A stretch of 36,757 nucleotides of DNA from Candidatus Liptonbacteria bacterium (GCA_043801735.1 JAZDLT010000020.1:1-36757); one strand, 5' to 3'; positions 1,869-26,570 are shown, counted from the first letter of the stretch. The notes: generated from the letters alone by a model not told the origin. Translations and numbers: made by a program.

Positions 1869-4800
1869 ATGAAATCTCATCCGTTGCCCATAAAAAACTT
1901 TGGTAAGCATCTCCCCCTTATAGCCCAGCCCAATTTAAACGAGATCCAAATCCGCTCTTACAATGTTTTTCTTAAAGAGGGTTTGCAGGAAATACTAAAA
2001 GAGGTCTCGCCCATTTGGGACCACACCGGCAAGGAGTTAGCGCTTTATTTTGACGGATACTATTTCGGAGAGGCCAAGTACGACGAGAAAACCACCCGTT
2101 ACAAGGATGCGACCTACGAAGCTCCGCTTTACTTGAAGATAAGATTGGAAAATAAGCGCACGGGCAAAAGTCATTCCCAGGAGGTCTATTTCGGGGATTT
2201 CCCGAAGATGACCGACCGCGGAACTTTCATAATCAACGGCGTGGAGCGCGTGGTGGTTTCCCAGCTCATCCGTTCCGCTGGCGTTTACTTCACCGCGGTA
2301 CCCTGGAGGGAAAAAATGCTTTTCGGGGCGAAGGTTATCCCGAATCGCGGCGCCTGGCTGGAGTTCGAGACCGACATTGATGGAACCATTGGAGTGAAAA
2401 TAGACCGACACCGCAAGGTGCCCGTCACCGACCTCCTGCGTGTTTTCGGGGCGAGCGACGAACAAATTCGGGATATGTTCCAGGGAGTGGACGCCGGCGG
2501 TATTTCCTATATCGAAACTACCCTCAATAAAGATATCGCCCGAAACGTGGAGGAGTCCTATCTTGAAATATACCGCCGCCTCCGCCCTGGCGACCCGGCT
2601 ACCGCTCAAACCGCCAAGAATATGGTGGACTCCGTTTTCCACCGCGCCGACCGCTACGACATATCTCCGGTGGGGCGTTTCAAACTAAATCAGCGTTTAG
2701 ATCTAAATCCCAAAAAGGAGAGCGCCCTACTTGACCTAGAGGACTTGAAGGCGATTATTAAAGAAATAATCCGTCTCGACAACACTCCGGACGCGGAAGC
2801 GGACGATATTGACCACCTGGGCAACCGTCGTCTCAAGGCGGTGGGGGAGCTGATGCAAGGCCGTTTGCGCATCGGTTTCGCGCGCTTGCGGCGCATTATT
2901 CAGGATCGTATGTCCACTTTGGACAAGGACAGCATGTTGCCCGCGCAACTGATCAATTTTCGCCCAATTACCGCGGTGATCAAAGAATTTTTCTCCTCTT
3001 CTCAGCTTTCCCAGTTTATGGATCAAATAAATCCCCTGGCGGAGCTGGAGCATAAACGCCGTTTGTCCGCTCTTGGCCCGGGCGGCCTCACTCGCGAGCG
3101 AGCCAGCTTCGAAGTGCGGGACGTGCACCGCTCCCATTATGGCCGCATCTGTCCCATTGAAACGCCAGAGGGTTCCAACATCGGCCTTATCAACTATCTG
3201 GCCAGCTTTGCCCGCATGAACGACTTCGGGTTTTTGGAAACCCCCTATATGAGGGTAAAAAACGGTCGGGTGACGGATGAAGTGGTTTGGTTGGACGCCC
3301 TTTCGGAGGAGAAATACAAAATCGTGCATGCGACCGTTAGCCGAGACGAGAAGTGTAAAATCTTGGACAAGATGGTAGACGTAAGATACGGAATCAATCC
3401 CACCACTTGCCCGCCAGACGAAGTGGACTTTATGGATGTTGCCCCCAATCAATTCATATCCGTAGCGACCTCCCTTGTTCCATTTTTACAACACGACGAT
3501 GCCAACCGTGCCCTAATGGGTTCTAATATGCAGCGTCAGGCGGTGGCCCTAGTGAAACCAGTTGCGCCCTATGTCGGTACCGGTCAGGAAGAAAGAGCCG
3601 CGGAGGACTCCGGCTACTTGGTCCGGGCGGAGGCAAACGGAGAAGTGATAGAGGCAGACGCTTCTCATATTAAGGTTAGGTATGCCAACGAAACCAAAGT
3701 TTACCACCTCGAAAAATTCAAACGCTCCAATCAATTTACCTGTATCTCTCAACGGCCGGCGGTAGTGGCAGGGGATAAGGTTAAAAAAGGAAACCTCCTG
3801 GCGGACGGACCCTCGACCCAGAATGGAGTGCTCGCACTTGGCCAGAACTTGCTCGTGGCTTTTATCTCTTGGGAGGGAGCCAACTTTGAAGATGCGATTG
3901 TTCTTTCGGAACGGGTAGTAAGAGATGACTTTTTCACTTCCATTCATGTAGAGGAATTTTATTGCGACGTGCGGGACACCAAGCTTGGACCGGAGATAAC
4001 CACACCCGACATTCCGAACGTATCCGAGGAAAAGCTGCGCAACTTGAACGAAGAGGGCATTATTCGCATCGGCGCGGAAGTAAAGGCGGGCGATATTTTG
4101 GTCGGCAAGATCTCGCCTAAGGGCGAAGTGGAGCTGACCCCGGAAGAGCGCTTATTGCGAGCGATCTTTGGTGAAAAAGCGCGGGATGTTAAGGATACTT
4201 CGCTTACTTTGCCGCACGGTAAACATGGACGTATCGTGGGCGTGAAAGTTTTCAGCCGTGAACAGGGCGACAAGCTGGAAGCGGGCGTAATAAAGCGCAT
4301 TCAGGTGGAAGTCGCGGACGTGCGCAAAATCCAGGCGGGCGACAAATTGGCCGGCCGGCACGGCAATAAGGGCGTTATTTCTCAGGTTCGTCCTGTGGAA
4401 GACATGCCCTATCTGGAAGATGGCACGCCGGTGGATGTGGTGCTGAACCCGCTGGGCGTGGCTTCCCGTATGAACCTGGGTCAGATTTTGGAGACCCACC
4501 TGGGCTGGGCGGCCAAGACCCTGGGTTACCGCGCGGTTACTCCCGGATTGGATTCCGCCAAAGAAGCAGACATCCGCGCGGAATTGAAGCAGGCCGGGTT
4601 GCCGGAAGACGGCAAGATTAAACTCTACGACGGCCGCACTGGAGTGCCTTTCGATAAACCGGTCACGGTCGGGTATAAATACATACTCAAATTAAACCAC
4701 CTGGTGGAGGACAAGGTGCATATGCGCTCCATCGGTCCTTACTCGCTCATTACCCAGCAACCCCTGGGCGGCAAGGCGCAGTTCGGCGGCCAACGCTTCG

Positions 4801-7800
4801 GGGAAATGGAGGTCTGGGCGCTGGAGGGTTACGGCGCGCGCGCGACCTTGCAGGAAATGCTGACCATCAAGTCCGATGATGTGTTGGGTCGTTCTTCCGC
4901 CTACGAATCGATTATTCGGGGCGAGCCGATTAAGGGCCCCAATATCCCCGCCTCTTTCAATGTTCTGGTGAACGAGCTCAAGGCATTGAGTCTTAATATT
5001 GAGCCCGTATATGATTCGCCCGCCGATCGCAAAGACGACTTTAAGGCGCTACGCATCAGCGTGGCTTCCCCAGACGATATCTTGAAATGGTCTCACGGGG
5101 AGATTCTGAAGCCGGAGACCATCAACTATCGTACCCAACGACCGGAAAAAGACGGGCTATTTTCGGAGCGTATCTTTGGGCCGACCAAGGACTATGAATG
5201 CACCTGCGGCAAATATCGCCGCATCCGTTATAAGGGCGTGATTTGCGACAAATGTGGCGTGGAAGTCACGCGCGCGGTGGTGCGGCGGGAGCGCCTGGGT
5301 CATATTGCCCTAGCCGCGCCGGTCAGCCATATATGGTTTTTCAAAAGTGTTCCGTCCCGTTTGAGCTTGCTTTTAGATGTTTCTTCTGTTCGATTGGAGC
5401 GTGTTATTTATTACGTGGACTACATTGTAACCGTAGTGGACGAAGAGCACCGCAAGGAGGTTCTGGAGGATCTGGATCGGGAATTAAGGGGTAAGCTGAA
5501 AACGGTGGACGAAAAAGACCGTAAGGTGAAAACCGAACTAAACTCGGAAGCCAACCAGTCGCGGGCGACTTTGGAGGCCATGCGTCCCGGTCAGGTTCTG
5601 TCGGAAAACGAATATCTTTCCTTGAGTCGGCGTTTTGGCAGCGTGTTTAAGGCGGGTACCGGCGCGGAGGCGGTGCGGGAGATTTTGGAAAAGATGGATT
5701 TGCGCAAAGAGGTCCACAAGATCGAGAAAGAACTAGAACATTCCAAGGATAAAGAAACGGTCGGGGAAACCAAAATTTTGCGGCGCCTGAAAATGCTGCG
5801 TTCCATGATTAAAAACGGCACGCGCCCGGAGTGGTTGATAATGACCGTTCTACCGGTCTTGCCCCCGGATCTGCGCCCGATGGTAGCCCTCGACGGCGGA
5901 CGCTATGCCACCTCCGATTTGAATGACCTCTATCGCCGGGTTATCAACCGTAACAACCGCCTCAAGAAACTTCTGGAAATAAAAGCGCCGGAAGTCATCG
6001 TTAAAAACGAGAAGCGCATGCTGCAGGAGGCGGTAGACGCCCTGATTGATAATTCCGCCCGCTTCGGCACCCAACAACTTTCCGCCCGGCGCCGCCCACT
6101 CCGTTCTTTGGCGGATATGTTGAAGGGTAAGCAAGGCAGGTTTCGTCAAAACTTACTCGGTAAGCGCGTGGACTATTCCGGCCGCTCCGTCATCGTGGTC
6201 GGGCCCAAGCTTAGTATTGATGAGTGCGGTTTACCCAAGAAAATGGCGCTGGAACTCTTCCGCCCGTTCGTTATTAGTGAAATAATCAAACGCGAATTAG
6301 CGCACAACATCCGCAATGCGAATCGTCTCATAGAACAAGCCACGGATGAAATATGGGCAATCCTGGAAGAGATCACCAAAAATTATCGCGTCCTTTTGAA
6401 TCGTGCTCCGACCCTGCATCGCTTGTCCATCCAGGCCTTCAAGCCGATTTTGGTGGAAGGTCTGGCCATTCAGGTTCCGCCCTTGGTCTGCGCCGCTTTC
6501 AATGCGGACTTTGATGGCGACCAGATGGCAGTGCACATACCGCTTTCGGAGGAGGCCCAACGGGAAGCCAGGGAAATTATGGATGCCGGCCGCAACCTAC
6601 TGAAGCCCGCCACGGGCGAACTAATCACCGCGCCCACCCAGGATTTCGTTTTGGGCACATATTATCTTACTCAAATGTATCCGGAGACCAAGGGCGCGGG
6701 CCGAGCCTTTACCTGCATCAAAGAGGCCCTAATGGCTTACCACTACGAGGCGCTCTCGCTCCATGCCCCAATTCGGGTGGGTGAACATAAAGAGACCACC
6801 CTCGGCCGTCTTATCTTTAACGAAGTTCTAGGGGATACGTTGGAATACGTGAACGAGACCTTGAATAAAAAGAAGTTGGCGCGCTTAATAGAAAGGATAA
6901 TTGTTTCGGCGGGATTGGAAAAAGCCCGGGACATACTCCAGCGGGCAAAGCTTCTGGGTTTTGACATGGCCACCCGGAGCGGCATCACTTGGGCAATGGC
7001 CGATCTTATTATTCCAGCCGCCAAGGCGGGAATTGTGCGCAAGGCGGAAGAAGAAGTGAGCGTTATCCGGGAGCAGTACGATCAGGGTTTCTTGACGGAA
7101 GCCGAACGGCGGGCACGGGTAATTAGCATTTGGGAAAAAGTAAAAAGCGACATCGCCAAACAGGTAACCGGATCCTTGCCCGCGGACAACTCTATTTACC
7201 AAATTATTGATTCCGGTTCGCGCGGTTCTTGGTCTCAGCCGATTCAAATGATGGGCATGAAGGGTTTAGTGGCAAATCCCCGGGGAGAAGTAATCGAATT
7301 ACCTATCAAGTCGTCCTTCAAGGAAGGACTATCTGTGTTGGAATACTTCATCTCTACTCACGGCGCGCGCAAAGGCACGACCGACACCGCTCTTAAAACC
7401 GCCCAGGCCGGATATCTAACCCGCCGTCTGGTAGACGTTTCTCAAGACCTGACTATCAAGGAAGAGGATTGCAGGAGTAAGGACGGTATGGAAATCCTAC
7501 GCAATGACAGTAAAAATCTGGGACAATCTTTTAGTTCTAGAGTGTTTTCACGTACCGCTCTGGAAGATATCCGGGTAGAACGTAAAATTGTCGTCCGCGC
7601 GGGAGAGGCAATAGACCGAGCTACGGCGGATACCATAGACAAATCCGGCCTGGAGAGCGTTAAAGTCCGCTCGCCTTTGAACTGCAAAACCCTTTATGGT
7701 CTTTGCCAAAAGTGCTACGGTTTCGATCTGGGCGACAACAAACCCGTTAAAATCGGTTCCGCGGTCGGGGTGGTGGCTGCCCAATCCATTGGTGAACCGG

Positions 7801-8675
7801 GCACCCAGCTTACCATGCGCACTTTCCATGTGGGAGGCGTGGCTGGAGCGGACATCACTCACGGTTTACCGCGCGTGGAAGAGTTGTTTGAGGTTCGTCC
7901 GCCCAAGGGACGCGCGATCTTGGCGGGCGCGGACGGCCGTATAGAAAAAATAGAAGAAAGGGGCAACTTTAAAATAATCACCCTGACCGTTTCCGGGGAA
8001 AAGGTCCGTGCCAAGGGTAGGCGCACCAAGGACAAAAAAGCCCTGGAATACTCTATTCCCCGCTCCGCGATGATCTACGTGAAAACAGGCGACACGGTCA
8101 AGTTGGGTCAGCAGATAACGGAGGGCAACCTGGATTTGCGCGAACTTTTGGAGTATCGCGGCAGCGCGGAGGTTATCAGCTATATTATCGGTGAGGTCCA
8201 GAAAATATATAGCGCGGAGGGTGCCTCCATCAATAATAAGCATATCGAAATAATTGCCCGCCAAATGTTCTCTCGGGTAAGGGTGAAAGAAACGGGTGAC
8301 GCAGTCGATTTAGTGATGGGCGAAGTTCTGGAACGCTCCCGGTTTCTAGAAATAAATCGTGAGCTGAAGCATCAGGGTAAGCGCCTGGCTAAGGCCCAGC
8401 AACTACTTTTGGGGATCACTCGGGTGGCGCTTTCCACGGAATCCTTTCTTTCCGCCGCCTCCTTCCAAGATACCGCCCGGGTATTGGTTAAGGCCGCCAT
8501 CGAGAGCAGAACGGATTCCTTGCGCGGTCTCAAAGAGAACGTGATTATTGGACGCCTCATCCCGGCCGGGGACACCAGTCGTTCCGGTTTGAGCCCGGAA
8601 ACAAAGGGCGAAGCGCTTATTTCCGAAGCGGTTTCTCCCTCGGAAGAGGGAGAGGAAGAGGCGGTTTCGGAATAA
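1869..8675 (+). CDS. rpoBC: DNA-directed RNA polymerase beta-beta' fusion protein (rpoB and rpoC in one 2268-aa ORF)
   Basis: The N-terminal part (about 1040 aa) carries beta hallmarks (GDFPKMTDRGTFIINGVERVVVSQL, NLGQILETHLGWAA, GEMEVWALEGYGA). The remainder carries beta' hallmarks: Zn finger CTCGKYRRIRYKGVICDKCGVEV, catalytic NADFDGDQMAVH, and GGQRFGEME upstream. The junction ...NIEPVYDSPADRKDDFKALRISVASP... at about nt 5007-5042 has no stop and no in-frame ATG. Confidence 0.95.
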   Translation: MKSHPLPIKNFGKHLPLIAQPNLNEIQIRSYNVFLKEGLQEILKEVSPIWDHTGKELALYFDGYYFGEAKYDEKTTRYKDATYEAPLYLKIRLENKRTGKSHSQEVYFGDFPKMTDRGTFIINGVERVVVSQLIRSAGVYFTAVPWREKMLFGAKVIPNRGAWLEFETDIDGTIGVKIDRHRKVPVTDLLRVFGASDEQIRDMFQGVDAGGISYIETTLNKDIARNVEESYLEIYRRLRPGDPATAQTAKNMVDSVFHRADRYDISPVGRFKLNQRLDLNPKKESALLDLEDLKAIIKEIIRLDNTPDAEADDIDHLGNRRLKAVGELMQGRLRIGFARLRRIIQDRMSTLDKDSMLPAQLINFRPITAVIKEFFSSSQLSQFMDQINPLAELEHKRRLSALGPGGLTRERASFEVRDVHRSHYGRICPIETPEGSNIGLINYLASFARMNDFGFLETPYMRVKNGRVTDEVVWLDALSEEKYKIVHATVSRDEKCKILDKMVDVRYGINPTTCPPDEVDFMDVAPNQFISVATSLVPFLQHDDANRALMGSNMQRQAVALVKPVAPYVGTGQEERAAEDSGYLVRAEANGEVIEADASHIKVRYANETKVYHLEKFKRSNQFTCISQRPAVVAGDKVKKGNLLADGPSTQNGVLALGQNLLVAFISWEGANFEDAIVLSERVVRDDFFTSIHVEEFYCDVRDTKLGPEITTPDIPNVSEEKLRNLNEEGIIRIGAEVKAGDILVGKISPKGEVELTPEERLLRAIFGEKARDVKDTSLTLPHGKHGRIVGVKVFSREQGDKLEAGVIKRIQVEVADVRKIQAGDKLAGRHGNKGVISQVRPVEDMPYLEDGTPVDVVLNPLGVASRMNLGQILETHLGWAAKTLGYRAVTPGLDSAKEADIRAELKQAGLPEDGKIKLYDGRTGVPFDKPVTVGYKYILKLNHLVEDKVHMRSIGPYSLITQQPLGGKAQFGGQRFGEMEVWALEGYGARATLQEMLTIKSDDVLGRSSAYESIIRGEPIKGPNIPASFNVLVNELKALSLNIEPVYDSPADRKDDFKALRISVASPDDILKWSHGEILKPETINYRTQRPEKDGLFSERIFGPTKDYECTCGKYRRIRYKGVICDKCGVEVTRAVVRRERLGHIALAAPVSHIWFFKSVPSRLSLLLDVSSVRLERVIYYVDYIVTVVDEEHRKEVLEDLDRELRGKLKTVDEKDRKVKTELNSEANQSRATLEAMRPGQVLSENEYLSLSRRFGSVFKAGTGAEAVREILEKMDLRKEVHKIEKELEHSKDKETVGETKILRRLKMLRSMIKNGTRPEWLIMTVLPVLPPDLRPMVALDGGRYATSDLNDLYRRVINRNNRLKKLLEIKAPEVIVKNEKRMLQEAVDALIDNSARFGTQQLSARRRPLRSLADMLKGKQGRFRQNLLGKRVDYSGRSVIVVGPKLSIDECGLPKKMALELFRPFVISEIIKRELAHNIRNANRLIEQATDEIWAILEEITKNYRVLLNRAPTLHRLSIQAFKPILVEGLAIQVPPLVCAAFNADFDGDQMAVHIPLSEEAQREAREIMDAGRNLLKPATGELITAPTQDFVLGTYYLTQMYPETKGAGRAFTCIKEALMAYHYEALSLHAPIRVGEHKETTLGRLIFNEVLGDTLEYVNETLNKKKLARLIERIIVSAGLEKARDILQRAKLLGFDMATRSGITWAMADLIIPAAKAGIVRKAEEEVSVIREQYDQGFLTEAERRARVISIWEKVKSDIAKQVTGSLPADNSIYQIIDSGSRGSWSQPIQMMGMKGLVANPRGEVIELPIKSSFKEGLSVLEYFISTHGARKGTTDTALKTAQAGYLTRRLVDVSQDLTIKEEDCRSKDGMEILRNDSKNLGQSFSSRVFSRTALEDIRVERKIVVRAGEAIDRATADTIDKSGLESVKVRSPLNCKTLYGLCQKCYGFDLGDNKPVKIGSAVGVVAAQSIGEPGTQLTMRTFHVGGVAGADITHGLPRVEELFEVRPPKGRAILAGADGRIEKIEERGNFKIITLTVSGEKVRAKGRRTKDKKALEYSIPRSAMIYVKTGDTVKLGQQITEGNLDLRELLEYRGSAEVISYIIGEVQKIYSAEGASINNKHIEIIARQMFSRVRVKETGDAVDLVMGEVLERSRFLEINRELKHQGKRLAKAQQLLLGITRVALSTESFLSAASFQDTARVLVKAAIESRTDSLRGLKENVIIGRLIPAGDTSRSGLSPETKGEALISEAVSPSEEGEEEAVSE

Positions 8676-10668: not shown

Positions 10669-10760
10669 GATAAGTATGGTTGGGCGGACTTTGCTATATG
10701 CTTAGAGTCGGGCACCCCGAAGATTGTTTTTTATCGAATCGCCCTTTGCGGGTTTGTGAC

Positions 10761-10769
10761 TGTGGATAA
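10761..10769 (-). promoter_or_regulatory. Perfect DnaA-box 9-mer (TGTGGATAA on the plus strand) upstream of the lexA-methylase promoter
   Basis: Exact reverse complement of TTATCCACA. It ends 9 nt upstream of the predicted -35. Confidence 0.45.
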
Positions 10770-10777
10770 CCAGCCCT

Positions 10778-10805
10778 TTTACACTTTCGATTTATTTTCT
10801 ATAAT
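10778..10805 (+). promoter_or_regulatory. Promoter of the LexA-methyltransferase gene, leaderless geometry
   Basis: TTTACA (10778-10783), 16-nt spacer, TATAAT (10800-10805). Only 6 nt separate the -10 from the ATG at 10812, and there is no Shine-Dalgarno sequence. Confidence 0.5.
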
Positions 10806-10811
10806 ATCGCT

Positions 10812-12242
10812 ATGATAACAAAAAGGCAAAAACAAACCCTGGATTTTATAACCGATTATCAGAAGCGGAGAGGATATGCCCCCTCTCTTGATGAGATACG
10901 CAAGAAATTAAAACTCTCATCTGTTTCAACGGCTCACTTTCATGTCTCTAAGCTGCGCGACTTGGGATTTTTATCAAAAGAGGAAAACAAACCGCGTTCG
11001 ATTGAGGCGTTTGGCCGTGAGACGATGGTACAAATTCCGCTTTTAGGAACTATCGCCGCTGGTCAACCGATAGAGGCGATACAGAACAAAGAAATGATAG
11101 CTGTTCCCAAAAGTAAAATTCCTTCTTCGACGGAGGTGTATGCCCTCCGCGTGGTTGGCAATAGCATGATTGATGAGAATATCAACGACGGAGATGTGGT
11201 TTTGGTGCGCCAACAAGAAACGGCCGAGAATGGGCAAAAAGTTGTGGCTCTTATTGATAACCACGAGGCAACCTTAAAAAAATTCTATAAAGAGAGAGGG
11301 CAGATCCGCCTACAACCTGCGAACAAAAGCATGGAACCAATTATTTTCAGAAACGGACGAGATGTTTCTATACAGGGAATAGTGCTTGATGTCATTCGCG
11401 AAGAAAGGGCTGCGGATATCCAGTTGCCAGAGCCCAGAGGGCAAGAAAAATATAAGGAACTGCCCGTTAATAAAATTATTTGTGGAGATGCGATAGAAGT
11501 AATGAAGAAATTTCCGCCAAATTCAGTTGATATTGTAGTTACCTCTCCACCTTATGATGCCGTTCGTGATTATAAGGGATTTTCCCTTGATTTACATTCG
11601 GCGGGAAAAGAAATATATCGTGTCCTCAAAGATGGTGGAGTAGCTGTTATGGTAATTCAAGATCAGACAAAAAACTTTGGTAAATCGTTAACTTCCTTCC
11701 GTACGATTACAGATTGGTGTGATAGTTTCGGATTCAAGCTTTTTGAGACGGTTATTTATCGCAAGTATGGCGCGGAGGGCGCATGGTGGAATAAACGTTT
11801 CCGCGTAGACCATGAATATATACCAATTTTTCTGAAAGGCGAGAGGCCGCAATATTTCAATAAAGAGCGTCTAAAAATTCCGTCTAAACATGGTGGAAAA
11901 ACAATGACGGGGGGCGGTACTCGGCTTACGAACGGCGTTCGAATAGCAACTCGCTCAATCAAAATAAACCCAATGAAGTGTAGGGGGACGATCTGGGAGT
12001 ATCTTACGGCGGGCGATGGAAGTCGCCTTAAGCACCAGCATCCCGCAACCTTCCCGAATCAGCTCCCGTATGATTTTATTGGTTGTTTTGCGCCAAAAAA
12101 CGGGATAGTGCTCGATCCTTTTGTCGGAAGTGGCACAACGACTGTCGCAGCAAAGAATCTTGGATACAAATATATTGGCATTGATATCGCACCCGAATAT
12201 TGCGAAATAGCAAGGAAAAGAATACAAGAGGAAACAAAATAG
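10812..12242 (+). CDS. LexA repressor (wHTH + S24 peptidase) fused to a beta-class N4/N6 DNA methyltransferase (SPPY, predicted m4C)
   Basis: aa 1-197 form a complete LexA: the wHTH RQKQTLDFITDYQKRRGYAPSLDEIRKKL, cleavage site IAAG (Ala83-Gly84), nucleophile GNSM (Ser118) and general base ATLKK (Lys156). aa ~216-476 form a PF01555-like methylase, with motif IV DIVVTSPPY (nt 11544-11555) preceding HPATFP and motif I LDPFVGSGTT. One ORF, with no stop in the linker of about 20 aa. Confidence 0.85.
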   Translation: MITKRQKQTLDFITDYQKRRGYAPSLDEIRKKLKLSSVSTAHFHVSKLRDLGFLSKEENKPRSIEAFGRETMVQIPLLGTIAAGQPIEAIQNKEMIAVPKSKIPSSTEVYALRVVGNSMIDENINDGDVVLVRQQETAENGQKVVALIDNHEATLKKFYKERGQIRLQPANKSMEPIIFRNGRDVSIQGIVLDVIREERAADIQLPEPRGQEKYKELPVNKIICGDAIEVMKKFPPNSVDIVVTSPPYDAVRDYKGFSLDLHSAGKEIYRVLKDGGVAVMVIQDQTKNFGKSLTSFRTITDWCDSFGFKLFETVIYRKYGAEGAWWNKRFRVDHEYIPIFLKGERPQYFNKERLKIPSKHGGKTMTGGGTRLTNGVRIATRSIKINPMKCRGTIWEYLTAGDGSRLKHQHPATFPNQLPYDFIGCFAPKNGIVLDPFVGSGTTTVAAKNLGYKYIGIDIAPEYCEIARKRIQEETK

Positions 12243-12252
12243 CCCAGAACGG
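12242..12252. repeat. Left copy of the 11-bp direct repeat GCCCAGAACGG
   Basis: Exact copy of 13231-13241. It starts at the last base of the methylase stop codon. Confidence 0.8.
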
Positions 12253-12261
12253 TAAATTAAT

Positions 12262-13200
12262 TTAGGATAATCTATCTGGTGTCTCTAGTGTGTATTGGAT
12301 TACGGCGCCCTCTGTCATTGCTAAAGAAAGGGGCTGCTTATTCCATATCTCTAAAAATTTCATATTACCTCGACTACCTCTGTTCTGGCCATAAATTTCC
12401 TTAGTAAACTTGTGTTGCTTTAAGTTCTCTAAATTCCAGTTTTCTGATTTAAGTTCCCATCCCGTGAGATCACTAATTAAAGATAGGGTTTCTGTTAAAA
12501 CACCCCCATTAAATTTAAAAAGGTCTATATGTCCATAATAAGTCGGATTGATGGACTTCAATTTAGCTATAAAAGAATCTATCTCTTGTATGAGATCTAT
12601 GACAGATATGTTCTTCAGCTTTACCCACCAATCTGCTTCTGCTCCATGGTGCAAATAATCGAACCAATCTAAAACGTTGCCAGTATACTTGAAAAGAATT
12701 TTCCATACGCCGTCCGCAAAAAATATAGGAGCCAATCCTTGTGTCCTTACAGAAATCTTTCCCGGAGAGTAATTCTCGAGAATGTACATTAAAAAATGAA
12801 TGGCACCAAGTGGGTATTTTCTTGCCAACGTACTTCTCTGTCTGTCAAACCCTCTTATGTAATTTGGATTTATGCAGTCAGACATTTTTTTGTGATAGTC
12901 AATCGGAGGGGTATTGAGCATGTGAATATTCATGTGGTGTCCTACGGAGCGTACCCCCTCCCGCAGAATCTCCATATCTAGAAAAATACACTTTCTAGCC
13001 GAAATGCCGGGCACGATTAACAAAGACTTCCCATCATAAAATCCTTTTATCTGCCAATTGAGATATTGGCTCATAAAAAGACCACACAATAAACCATCCA
13101 CGTCTGGACTTAATATGCAATTTTGTCCAGGATCTATTATCCAAGGATATTTTTTGAGTAGGACAGCATAATCAATTGTTAACGAGGAGGGATGTGACAT
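12262..13200 (-). CDS. Hypothetical 312-aa protein; candidate partner (nuclease/effector) of the LexA-methylase
   Basis: Clean ORF, and the most AT-rich gene in the window by my line-by-line counts (roughly mid-30s to low-40s % GC versus about 50-55% nearby). Convergent with the methylase, 19 nt apart. Weak ordered motifs reminiscent of DHH phosphoesterases (SPDVDG, FLDME, GHH). No family is recognised with confidence. Confidence 0.6.
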   Translation of the reverse strand: MSHPSSLTIDYAVLLKKYPWIIDPGQNCILSPDVDGLLCGLFMSQYLNWQIKGFYDGKSLLIVPGISARKCIFLDMEILREGVRSVGHHMNIHMLNTPPIDYHKKMSDCINPNYIRGFDRQRSTLARKYPLGAIHFLMYILENYSPGKISVRTQGLAPIFFADGVWKILFKYTGNVLDWFDYLHHGAEADWWVKLKNISVIDLIQEIDSFIAKLKSINPTYYGHIDLFKFNGGVLTETLSLISDLTGWELKSENWNLENLKQHKFTKEIYGQNRGSRGNMKFLEIWNKQPLSLAMTEGAVIQYTLETPDRLS

Positions 13201-13230
13201 TTATTGACTTAAATAGAATTTATTCATGGT

Positions 13231-13241
13231 GCCCAGAACGG
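13231..13241. repeat. Right copy of the 11-bp direct repeat GCCCAGAACGG
   Basis: Exact copy of 12242-12252. It lies in TGGTGCCCAGAACGGAACC, which loosely resembles the tRNA-Leu 3' end TGCCCAGGGCCGGAATCGAACC at 13437. Confidence 0.8.
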
Positions 13242-13400
13242 AACCTCCTCCTTCACTAAAGCTACGGATGGACTAGGAGCCGGTAGGTTTGTGCCGCGGG
13301 AGGGAGTCCCCTCCAGAGGCGGGCAAGGAACCCTCATGACCTTGCGATCGCGGGATTTTGCCTGTCCGCCAAAGCTTTGGCGTCGGCGGAAGTCCCGTGC

Positions 13401-13418
13401 GCCCGCCTGTCGGCGGGC
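13401..13418. repeat. GC-rich hairpin GCCCGCC-TGTC-GGCGGGC
   Basis: Perfect 7-bp stem, 19 nt downstream of the tRNA-Leu 3' end. Neighbouring palindromes are CGCCAAAGCTTTGGCG (13367-13382) and GGAGGG-AGTC-CCCTCC (13299-13314). Confidence 0.7.
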
Positions 13419-13436
13419 AGGTCTGCCAATAAAATG

Positions 13437-13518
13437 TGCCCAGGGCCGGAATCGAACCGGCATGGGTTTCCCCACACGATTTTGAGTCGTGCGCGTCTAC
13501 CAATTCCGCCACCCGGGC
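13437..13518 (-). tRNA. tRNA-Leu (anticodon CAA), CCA not encoded
   Basis: Cloverleaf folded by hand: acceptor GCCCGGG/CCTGGGC; D arm GCGGAATTGGTAGACGC; anticodon stem CACGA/TCGTG with loop CTCAAAA; long variable arm; T arm GCCGG-TTCGATT-CCGGC; discriminator A. Confidence 0.92.
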
Positions 13519-13591
13519 AGGGTGAGGTATCTTGCTAGTTTTCAACTGATTGTCCGTATCTTTCGATGCGCACGACTGTCGTGCACGCCTG

Positions 13592-13607
13592 CCTGCCGGT
13601 AGGCAGG
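13592..13607. repeat. GC-rich hairpin CCTGCC-GGTA-GGCAGG
   Basis: Perfect 6-bp stem. A related unit, CCTGCCTGCTGGTCGGCATGG, is inserted at 30817-30837. Confidence 0.7.
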
Positions 13608-13766
13608 TCTACCTCCAGCGTCCGGGCATATCAAGTTACCGTCCTATTTAACCCTTTTTTACCCCTGAGATCAAGGTCATTTCTTTGCGTTAGGGCCCAT
13701 TAATTTATACAATTACAGCAATGGTCAGCGTAATCTCTGGACCAGCTCGGGATAATCAATGAACTT

Positions 13767-25923: not shown

Positions 25924-25932
25924 TTATCCACA
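25924..25932 (+). promoter_or_regulatory. Perfect DnaA-box 9-mer TTATCCACA upstream of the pilin promoter
   Basis: Exact consensus, 18 nt upstream of the extended -10 at 25951. Confidence 0.45.
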
Positions 25933-25997: not shown

Positions 25998-26570
25998 ATG
26001 ACTAAAAAACAAAAGGGTTTCACCCTTATCGAGCTTCTGGTAGTCATCGCCATTGTGGCCGTTTTATCGGTGGTGGTTATCTTGACCCTTAACCCGGCCG
26101 AGCTTCTCAAGCAAGCGAGGGATTCCAACCGGGTTTCCGATTTGTCTACCGTTAAGAGCGCGGTCGCTTTGTATCTGGCGGACGGGCAAACCACTTGGAA
26201 CGTTACTTCCACCTGGTGCTATGCCACGACCAGCACCGCTCCTGCGCGCTGTGGTGGTTATTTCGGAACTCAAGTAACCGCGACTTCCACTGGTTCGGGC
26301 ACGGCAGCCGCAAATAACGGCACGGGTTGGGTACCGCTCAACTTTGCCGCTATTACTTCCGGAGCTCCGTTTGGCCAATTGCCGCTGGATCCGCTAAACA
26401 ACTCCCAGTACTTCTACGCGTTTAACGGTACTTCCACCAATAACTCCTTCAAGCTGGGTGCGAACATGGAAAGTGGTAAGTATGCGAACGGCGGAACAGG
26501 AGACGTGGAAACGACTGACGGCGGTACGGTTACAACGGTTTATGAAGTAGGCACTCTGTTGTCTCTTTAG
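25998..26570 (+). CDS. Type IV pilin-like protein (probable major pilin)
   Basis: Class III signal MTKKQKG|FTLIELLVVIAIVAVLS with Glu at +5. Followed by a strong terminator. Confidence 0.88.
   Translation: MTKKQKGFTLIELLVVIAIVAVLSVVVILTLNPAELLKQARDSNRVSDLSTVKSAVALYLADGQTTWNVTSTWCYATTSTAPARCGGYFGTQVTATSTGSGTAAANNGTGWVPLNFAAITSGAPFGQLPLDPLNNSQYFYAFNGTSTNNSFKLGANMESGKYANGGTGDVETTDGGTVTTVYEVGTLLSL

Follow-up and report, generated by a model that had tools for sequence, protein, structure and literature searches.

The 36,757-nt contig analysed here, referred to in its entirety as the window, belongs to a metagenome-assembled genome of Candidatus Liptonbacteria (Patescibacteria/Parcubacteria). Between a PAP2 gene and a tRNA-Leu(CAA) gene it carries a convergent gene pair: a 476-aa open reading frame (ORF) that joins a LexA repressor to a DNA methyltransferase, hereafter the fusion, and a 312-aa gene without a Pfam, NCBIfam or PADLOC match, hereafter the orphan. 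The two stop codons lie 19 nt apart. A sequence-only reading of the same DNA had proposed both genes and the adjacency of the tRNA, and all three hold; the fusion (10812–12242, plus strand) carries LexA_DNA_bind, Peptidase_S24 and N6_N4_Mtase domains, the orphan occupies 12262–13200 on the minus strand, and the tRNA was called at 13436–13518, also on the minus strand. The features of the locus are as follows.

10761–10770, minus strand: DnaA-box-like TGTGGATAAC (TTATCCACA on the minus strand), at the left edge of DNA homology among cassettes
10778–10805, plus strand: sigma-70-type promoter TTTACA-16-TATAAT, matching 11 of 12 consensus positions
10785–10802, plus strand: putative LexA operator, the direct repeat TTTCGAT-N4-TTTCTAT, called by a position weight matrix (PWM) and covariation
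10812–11402, plus strand: LexA part of the fusion, residues 1–197, with a winged helix-turn-helix (HTH) DNA-binding domain, the Ala83-Gly84 cleavage site and the Ser118/Lys156 dyad
11526–12242, plus strand: β-class N4/N6 DNA methyltransferase domain, residues 239–476 (PF01555, PADLOC MTase_II)
12242–12252, plus strand: the left of two identical copies of the 11-nt direct repeat GCCCAGAACGG
12262–13200, minus strand: convergent 312-aa orphan, candidate cognate restriction nuclease by its slot and its co-inheritance with the methyltransferase type
13231–13241, plus strand: right copy of GCCCAGAACGG, an exact match to the left copy, 30 nt ahead of the start codon of the orphan
13288–13360, minus strand: tRNA-Leu-derived fragments (a 3'-half pseudo-tRNA), from alignment to tRNA-Leu 3' ends
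13396–13427, unstranded: duplicated hairpin element, found by repeat comparison, with its other copy at 13580–13613 beyond the tRNA
13436–13518, minus strand: tRNA-Leu(CAA), detected with ARAGORN and Rfam (57.8 bits) and oriented with its 3' end to the cassette

The fusion is a full LexA in frame with a β-class N4/N6 DNA methyltransferase. LexA_DNA_bind spans residues 2–62 (PF01726, E = 2.6e-13) and Peptidase_S24 residues 76–191 (PF00717, E = 1.1e-30), and the protein scores 183 bits on the NCBIfam lexA equivalog model TIGR00498, against a cutoff of 111. It therefore qualifies as a LexA both by curated domain cutoffs and by its Ala-Gly cleavage site and Ser-Lys dyad, Ala83-Gly84 and Ser118/Lys156 being read from the sequence. 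The N6_N4_Mtase domain (residues 239–468; PF01555, E = 1.4e-39) has a PADLOC Type II methyltransferase, MTase_II, as its best match (E = 3e-44). It carries motif IV as TSPPY at residues 244–248 and motif I as DPFVGSGTT, the catalytic and AdoMet motifs by which a methyltransferase is placed in a Type II restriction-modification (R-M) system. Its nearest PDB relative is 2zie (Thermus TTHA0409), followed by N4-cytosine methyltransferases and CcrM.

Among 36 diverse fusions, at least 90% retain the LexA motifs IAAG.PI, G.SM and TLKK, and from these conserved catalytic residues we infer that the fusion is coupled to the SOS response. A different proposal would be that the LexA part is a mere DNA-binding and dimerisation module, like a fused C protein, whose S24 domain has ceased to respond to RecA and provides no SOS coupling. 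It would then be hard to explain why at least 90% of the 36 fusions retain Ser118, Lys156 and the Ala-Gly site, as there would be no selection for self-cleavage, and we regard this proposal as distinctly unlikely. It draws on real variation, nonetheless: bare versions of the methylase occur, the HTH-fused methylases of classical systems regulate themselves with no input from DNA damage, and the orphan remains paired with methylases that carry the LexA winged helix alone, lacking S24 (L066, L067, L170), in which that winged helix would drive the same methylase/orphan pair. These variants show that the DNA-binding part by itself serves as an R-M controller.

The promoter region supports autoregulation. 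The ATG lies 6 nt past the −10 element of TTTACA-16-TATAAT, confirming the leaderless geometry described from the sequence, and the perfect DnaA box described just upstream is likewise present (TTATCCACA on the minus strand, 10761–10769). That description had also held that no LexA operator was recognisable; a conserved one does exist at 10785–10802, and its direct-repeat form, as opposed to a palindrome, is why it was missed. Seventy-two aligned upstream regions share TGTGGATAAC followed by the direct repeat ACTTTCKRT-TTAY-TTTCKRT, which overlaps the promoter, and the string TATAATATCACTATG is near-identical across about 30 loci. In the window, the half-sites TTTCGAT (10785–10791) and TTTCTAT (10796–10802) are separated by 4 nt, giving an 11-bp period, and overlap the −35 and −10 elements. 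Scored with the operator PWM, for which the background is 3 sites of at least 14 bits per 650 kb, the window site (10782–10803) reaches 32 bits; nothing else in the window scores 10 bits or more. The PWM yielded no second operator in the window or across 650 kb of related DNA, where the additional matches within loci are intragenic and weak.

The putative operator is kept in about 65 loci, in which the two half-sites vary in concert (CGAT/CGAT, CGGT/CGGT, CGGG/CGGG and CTAG/CTAG) and track the recognition helix of LexA: CGAT, and likewise the half-site TTTCTAT, occurs with STAHFH, CGGT with STIHQH, CGGG with ..IHEH and CTAG with STVDFY. Such paired change of half-sites together with helix covariation is the signature expected of a dimer that reads two like half-sites. 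The operator thus lies in the promoter of the gene for its own predicted binding protein, the arrangement of LexA-type autoregulation. In L043 and L025 it reads exactly GTTC-N7-GTTC, and the alphaproteobacterial LexA box is the direct repeat GTTC-N7-GTTC.

The DnaA-type box lies upstream of lexA in most of the 72 loci; there are 74 copies in lexA loci versus 12.5 in shuffled sequence, and loci collected around parA are not enriched. Box and repeat move together where the gene pair is inverted (L013, L019). A coupling of methylase expression to DnaA is one idea. In three loci with long lexA leaders (L007, L016, L054), a second DnaA-type box in the opposite orientation stands beside the start codon, so that the operator is located between inverted boxes. 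A further short motif, AAGTCAA, occurs a few nucleotides 5' of the orphan ATG in the window (13204–13210, minus strand) and upstream of lexA in long-leader loci (L021, L026, L034, L078 and others).

The fusion is not restricted to this contig. LexA–methylase relatives were found in at least 310 species-representative genomes, the best 80 of which are Parcubacteria lineages, and the closest 120 proteins in a large database are all full fusions, which are currently annotated merely as 'LexA' or 'methyltransferase'. When the LexA part alone was searched against 1.8 billion representatives, matches of about 49% identity or more were nearly all proteins of 390–890 aa with LexA at residues 1–197; stand-alone LexAs of about 200 aa appeared mostly at or below about 47%. 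Ten of the long LexA proteins carry either β-class N6_N4 or γ-class N6_Mtase/Eco57I/TaqI_C domains. Identities of the LexA and methylase parts are discordant between loci (92%/40%, 54%/85% and 67%/91%), and DNA homology to the window, whose methylase is of type A, ends at the TSPPY codons in loci with type B fusions and at the end of the S24 domain in those with type C. We therefore conclude that a single LexA module has become attached to many different methylase cassettes. One contig, L057, bears two LexA–methylase fusions (519–2429 and 4992–6311) 2.6 kb apart, with starts about 4.4 kb apart; the first is preceded by a TTTCGGT-type repeat and the second by a different, palindrome-like sequence, GGTGTCA..TGACACC, as expected if they are independent controllers. 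Viral contigs yielded one LexA–methyltransferase fusion and several bare methyltransferases, and no clear phage origin.

Each methylase type comes with a convergent partner of its own. The orphan follows its methylase type in 52 of 52 loci in which sequence continues, and is found after other types in 0 of 25; the joint inheritance of methylase and partner that characterises Type II R-M systems is therefore observed, and the pairing proposed from the sequence is upheld. Pairing also persists with a methylase devoid of any N-terminal extension (L168), beside an IS240-type transposase. Type B fusions have a convergent partner of 152–194 aa comprising Endonuclease_7 and His-Me finger domains (PADLOC REase_II, E = 2.6e-46), which we take to be the Hpy99I architecture, and the convergent partner of type C fusions, in the position of the orphan, is another PADLOC REase_II (E = 9e-55). 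Because the same slot holds known restriction endonucleases (REases) in these other fusion types, the orphan is read as a candidate R-M nuclease. Moreover, the orphan homolog of 23 loci is immediately preceded by a codirectional 73-aa XRE gene, whose PDB matches include the R-M controllers C.BclI and C.AhdI; this is the classical C–R arrangement. The orphan represents a new family and a candidate cognate nuclease.

Homologs of the orphan number 321, all without annotation, and a Pfam search of all 44 orphan family members at E ≤ 10 returned nothing. The invariant motifs are SPDxDG, LDME, GHH, N..R..D and DG. An AlphaFold (AF2) model was obtained with pLDDT 91 and pTM 0.91, and the top Foldseek PDB matches of both the full orphan and its N-terminal domain all belong to the DHH superfamily (RecJ, archaeal RecJ/Cdc45, GAN and PggH). 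In an hhalign comparison with a single phage DHH-like ORF the first three motifs fall in register, at a non-significant E = 0.12; no RecJ or NrnA genes for a DHH profile were found in the collected loci. The orphan likely adopts a DHH-like metal-dependent phosphoesterase fold, which the model suggests and does not establish. The window orphan is about 32% identical to the orphans beside the most similar methylases, and at this level of identity the nuclease gene may have been exchanged alone. On a viral contig (L085, 8977–9480), a same-strand ORF that follows a methylase 59% identical to that of the window is weakly similar to the N-terminal half of the orphan (25% over 173 aa).

The occurrence of bona fide Type II restriction enzymes as partners in other fusion types bears on a different interpretation, in which the fusion is the global SOS repressor of the lineage, and methylase and DHH-like partner are repair functions (damage-induced methylation with a RecJ-like exonuclease) that take no part in restriction. 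A LexA part above the lexA equivalog cutoff would suit that role, as would the RecJ-type exonucleases among the best fold matches of the orphan, yet cassettes of methylase and partner have been swapped behind near-identical LexA modules, and the orphan also stands beside LexA-free methylases, often after a C-protein-like gene. No stand-alone LexA is more than about 47% identical among the representatives, a few short entries excepted, so that the fused form may be the only LexA of these bacteria, and a 2017 study reportedly regarded the LexA of Patescibacteria as regulator of an SOS regulon. Against such a regulon stands the lack of a second operator site, both in the window and in the related DNA (650 kb); against a lineage-wide repressor stand a contig that holds two fusions with different operators and a unit that relatives lack at the syntenic site and whose context differs everywhere. 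We consider the global-repressor interpretation fairly unlikely.

The pair sits within an island. GC content across 10760–13224 is 0.408 versus 0.512 elsewhere in the window, the minimum among all windows of the same size, and third-position GC (GC3) of the island genes is 0.37–0.44 versus 0.55–0.63 in flanking genes. The low-GC block described in the sequence-only reading therefore stands for this interval; its 'repeat-rich 200 bp' at 13225–13435 have a GC of 0.62 and do not belong to it. Synteny was assessed in parA-anchored loci of relatives, where the conserved order is rpoBC, S6, SSB, S18, PAP2, tRNA-Leu(CAA, minus strand), parA, parB, relA, with tRNA-Leu(CAA) directly 5' of parA in most. 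The interval from PAP2 to the tRNA is 2793 bp in the window, and 130–830 bp, without lexA–methylase or orphan, in at least eight relatives (L091, L105, L114, L116, L117, L120, L121 and L132). Absence from the same site in relatives thus coincides with deviating composition, as in a tRNA-associated genomic island. At the same tRNA-Leu(CAA), L093 (2472–4383) carries an MjaI-like restriction enzyme and an N6_N4 methylase with a C-terminal SNase-like domain, and the closest relative by parA (L088, 226–1845) has a large serine recombinase/integrase abutting the tRNA. The PAP2/tRNA-Leu site is a hotspot.

Other cassettes add further evidence. In blastn comparisons with more than 20 lexA cassettes, homology of the window sets in sharply at 10760/61 and runs as far as the stop codon of the methylase, and left neighbours are unrelated in 62 loci. 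The LexA part of L014 is 90% identical to that of the window, versus 58% for rpoBC. Among 80 other loci, 12 have a tRNA gene no more than 600 bp past the nuclease end, its 3' end always toward the cassette and its anticodon variable, and the adjacency of cassette and tRNA looks meaningful. That the block could instead be vertically inherited core DNA, with low GC and tRNA adjacency coincidental, is already contradicted by the empty site in at least eight relatives, and fits poorly with the lowest GC in the window, variable flanks, and DNA identity of 75–84% across lineages whose rpoBC proteins are about 58% identical. The location of rpoBC/S6/SSB/S18 no more than about 10 kb from the lexA unit also in L014, L022 and L051, and the lack of an integrase or clear att repeats in the window, would accord with vertical descent, which we nevertheless hold to be highly improbable. 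Most likely, about 10760–13224 is a horizontally acquired insert of 2.5 kb, with PAP2 on one side and the 3' end of tRNA-Leu(CAA) on the other.

The GC-rich stretch at 13225–13435 is debris, containing tRNA-Leu fragments and the second copy of the hairpin element. Positions 13313–13360 align to the 3' 50 nt of tRNA-Leu(CAA) of other lineages (94% over 33 nt), and 13288–13308 match the tRNA 3' end in L094 at 21 of 21 nt. The pseudo-tRNA fragment aligns with the T-arm of the resident tRNA, no intact tRNA was called at 13288–13360, and this tRNA-Leu 3' half is nearer to the tRNA-Leu of other lineages than to the resident gene. The GC-rich hairpin element normally lies between tRNA-Leu and parA, as it does in the relatives L125 and L131. 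A pseudo-tRNA together with hairpins on both sides of the tRNA looks like the scar of an earlier integration or duplication. The 11-nt repeat GCCCAGAACGG flanks the orphan ORF only, with one copy right after the methylase stop and the other before the orphan start, and is of uncertain significance; its left copy shares GCCCAG with the tRNA-Leu 3' end, and its right copy, with the preceding base, shares GTGCCCAG.

We read the locus as a mobile Type II R-M cassette in which the methylase would repress its own gene and be induced through RecA-triggered self-cleavage of LexA, and give this reading, including its inferred mechanism, a probability of roughly 0.6. The LexA winged helix would bind TTTCGAT-N4-TTTCTAT over the −35 and −10 elements of its own leaderless promoter, and the fusion methylase would hold its own synthesis low, as HTH-fused methylases and C proteins do in classical R-M systems. 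Upon DNA damage, RecA filaments would trigger self-cleavage at Ala83-Gly84, which would separate the DNA-binding domain from the S24–methylase body; the promoter would be derepressed and methylase output would rise. The extra methylase may shield unmethylated products of repair and replication from the cognate nuclease, which we propose to be the product of the convergent 312-aa gene, possibly with a DHH fold. This could constitute a feedback loop that senses self-restriction, and stronger transcription across the 19-nt convergent gap may also dampen the nuclease gene. The analysis itself establishes the domain content, the conserved catalytic residues, the covariation of operator and helix, the joint inheritance of the pair and the island; DNA binding, RecA-dependent cleavage, induction, nuclease activity and the direction of any physiological effect are predictions.

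Several observations weigh against this reading. With regard to the nuclease, the orphan has no sequence match in Pfam, NCBIfam, PADLOC or a PDB profile search, so that the gene neighbouring the methylase does not belong to a recognised REase family; its fold match is weak (Foldseek E of about 1e-2, probability up to 0.94, TM 0.27–0.46), and the DHH enzymes known to us are exonucleases or phosphodiesterases, not sequence-specific endonucleases. The C-protein-like XRE gene is absent from the window cassette, unlike the 23 other loci. Analysis of k-mer avoidance gave no clear recognition site: GATC, GGCC and TCGA are at 0.70–0.75 of expectation across all loci (L001–L080 pooled), and a depletion of AGATCT confined to type A loci (0.66 versus 1.11) is too weak for a call. 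With regard to mobility, the window contains no integrase, and the sole candidate for att repeats across the whole island is a 10-of-11 match of the kind expected by chance. With regard to SOS coupling, the existence of HTH-only variants without S24 implies that the module does not need damage sensing, and cleavage could lower methylase activity instead of raising it. A more ambitious view would make Parcubacteria LexA a portable R-M controller: a conserved promoter–operator–LexA module, edged by a DnaA box, would be recombined in frame onto many cassettes and operate a loop from self-restriction or other DNA damage through RecA and cleavage to methylase. The partner in the window would be the first restriction enzyme with a DHH fold, and the fused protein perhaps the sole LexA of its host; we offer this combination tentatively and regard it as doubtful.

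Among known systems, the closest parallels to the proposed cassette are the Type II methylases M.SsoII/M.Ecl18kI, M.EcoRII, M.MspI and M.ScrFIA, which are fused to an HTH and repress their own promoters. Shared features are an N-terminal DNA-binding domain, an operator in the methylase promoter and an adjacent nuclease gene, and HTH-only versions of the window's cassette type occur. Unlike these methylases, the fusion contains a whole LexA with intact cleavage site and dyad, such that repression should lift on DNA damage; its putative operator is a direct repeat, and the same LexA module is found on many unrelated methylase types. In C-protein R-M systems (PvuII, BamHI, AhdI, Esp1396I, BclI), a dedicated transcription factor times expression of methylase and nuclease. 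The 23 related loci with a C.BclI/C.AhdI-like 73-aa XRE gene before the orphan homolog resemble these, whereas the window cassette has no C gene, and its control would be exerted on the methylase side by a domain covalently joined to the enzyme. Canonical LexA, above all that of alphaproteobacteria with its direct-repeat box, has the same domains and catalytic residues and, as predicted here, an autoregulated promoter with a direct repeat of 11-bp period; the fusion differs from it in bearing a methylase, in residing on a mobile cassette of variable presence, and in having no other target in the DNA scanned.

Lambda CI and SXT SetR are damage-cleavable repressors of mobile elements, and the cassette would resemble them as a mobile element that reads the host RecA signal via a self-cleaving S24 repressor; both are separate proteins, unlike the repressor described here, which is fused to a methylase. 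In Type I systems, restriction is alleviated after DNA damage by proteolysis of HsdR, not by methylase induction. The cassette would share with this response a relaxation of restriction pressure upon damage, and would differ by achieving this through methylase induction. The orphan resembles DHH phosphoesterases (RecJ, archaeal RecJ/GAN/Cdc45, NrnA, PggH) in the order and spacing of its DxD, D, (G)HH and D motifs, and departs from them in having GHH in place of DHH, no Pfam or PDB sequence match, and weak structural scores. We know of no DHH enzyme that serves as an R-M nuclease.

The sequence-only reading had presented the pair as the window's best candidate for a novel system. No description of a LexA–methylase fusion was found in the literature searched, which left out one closely relevant 2017 LexA paper, and PADLOC recognises the methylase alone; to this extent the claim stands. 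It does not stand as regards kind or rarity: the cassette is better classed among the variants of Type II R-M than as a new kind of system, and it is widespread, not unique to the window. Regulator–methylase fusions and self-cleaving repressors on mobile elements are both known; the two combined, the wide occurrence of that combination and the candidate nuclease family appear to be new to the literature searched.

In R-M systems methylation must stay ahead of cleavage, and there is little understanding of the way in which Type II systems deal with damaged DNA and repair synthesis. If the proposed mechanism is correct, a methylase with its own RecA-sensitive repressor would provide a direct link between the SOS signal and R-M control. 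The architecture is found in hundreds of Patescibacteria species and is no curiosity of one genome, and present annotation as 'LexA' or 'methyltransferase' hides it. Patescibacteria reportedly lack CRISPR for the most part, and they may lean on R-M for defence. The orphan, with its 321 unannotated homologs and perhaps an unusual fold, is a candidate new nuclease family, and the conserved LexA module with swapped cassettes provides a clear case of modular exchange in defence genes.

Two observations concern the window outside the island. rpoB and rpoC form one continuous 2268-aa ORF (1869–8675) encoding a fused β/β', which is also continuous by tblastn in relatives such as L091 and L114. In addition, two more perfect DnaA boxes occur, at 1606–1614, about 260 bp upstream of rpoBC, and at 25924–25932, about 25 nt before a TATAAT that itself lies upstream of a type IV pilin-like gene (25998–26570, N_methyl motif); the window thus contains three perfect boxes in 36.7 kb, versus about 0.1–0.3 expected.

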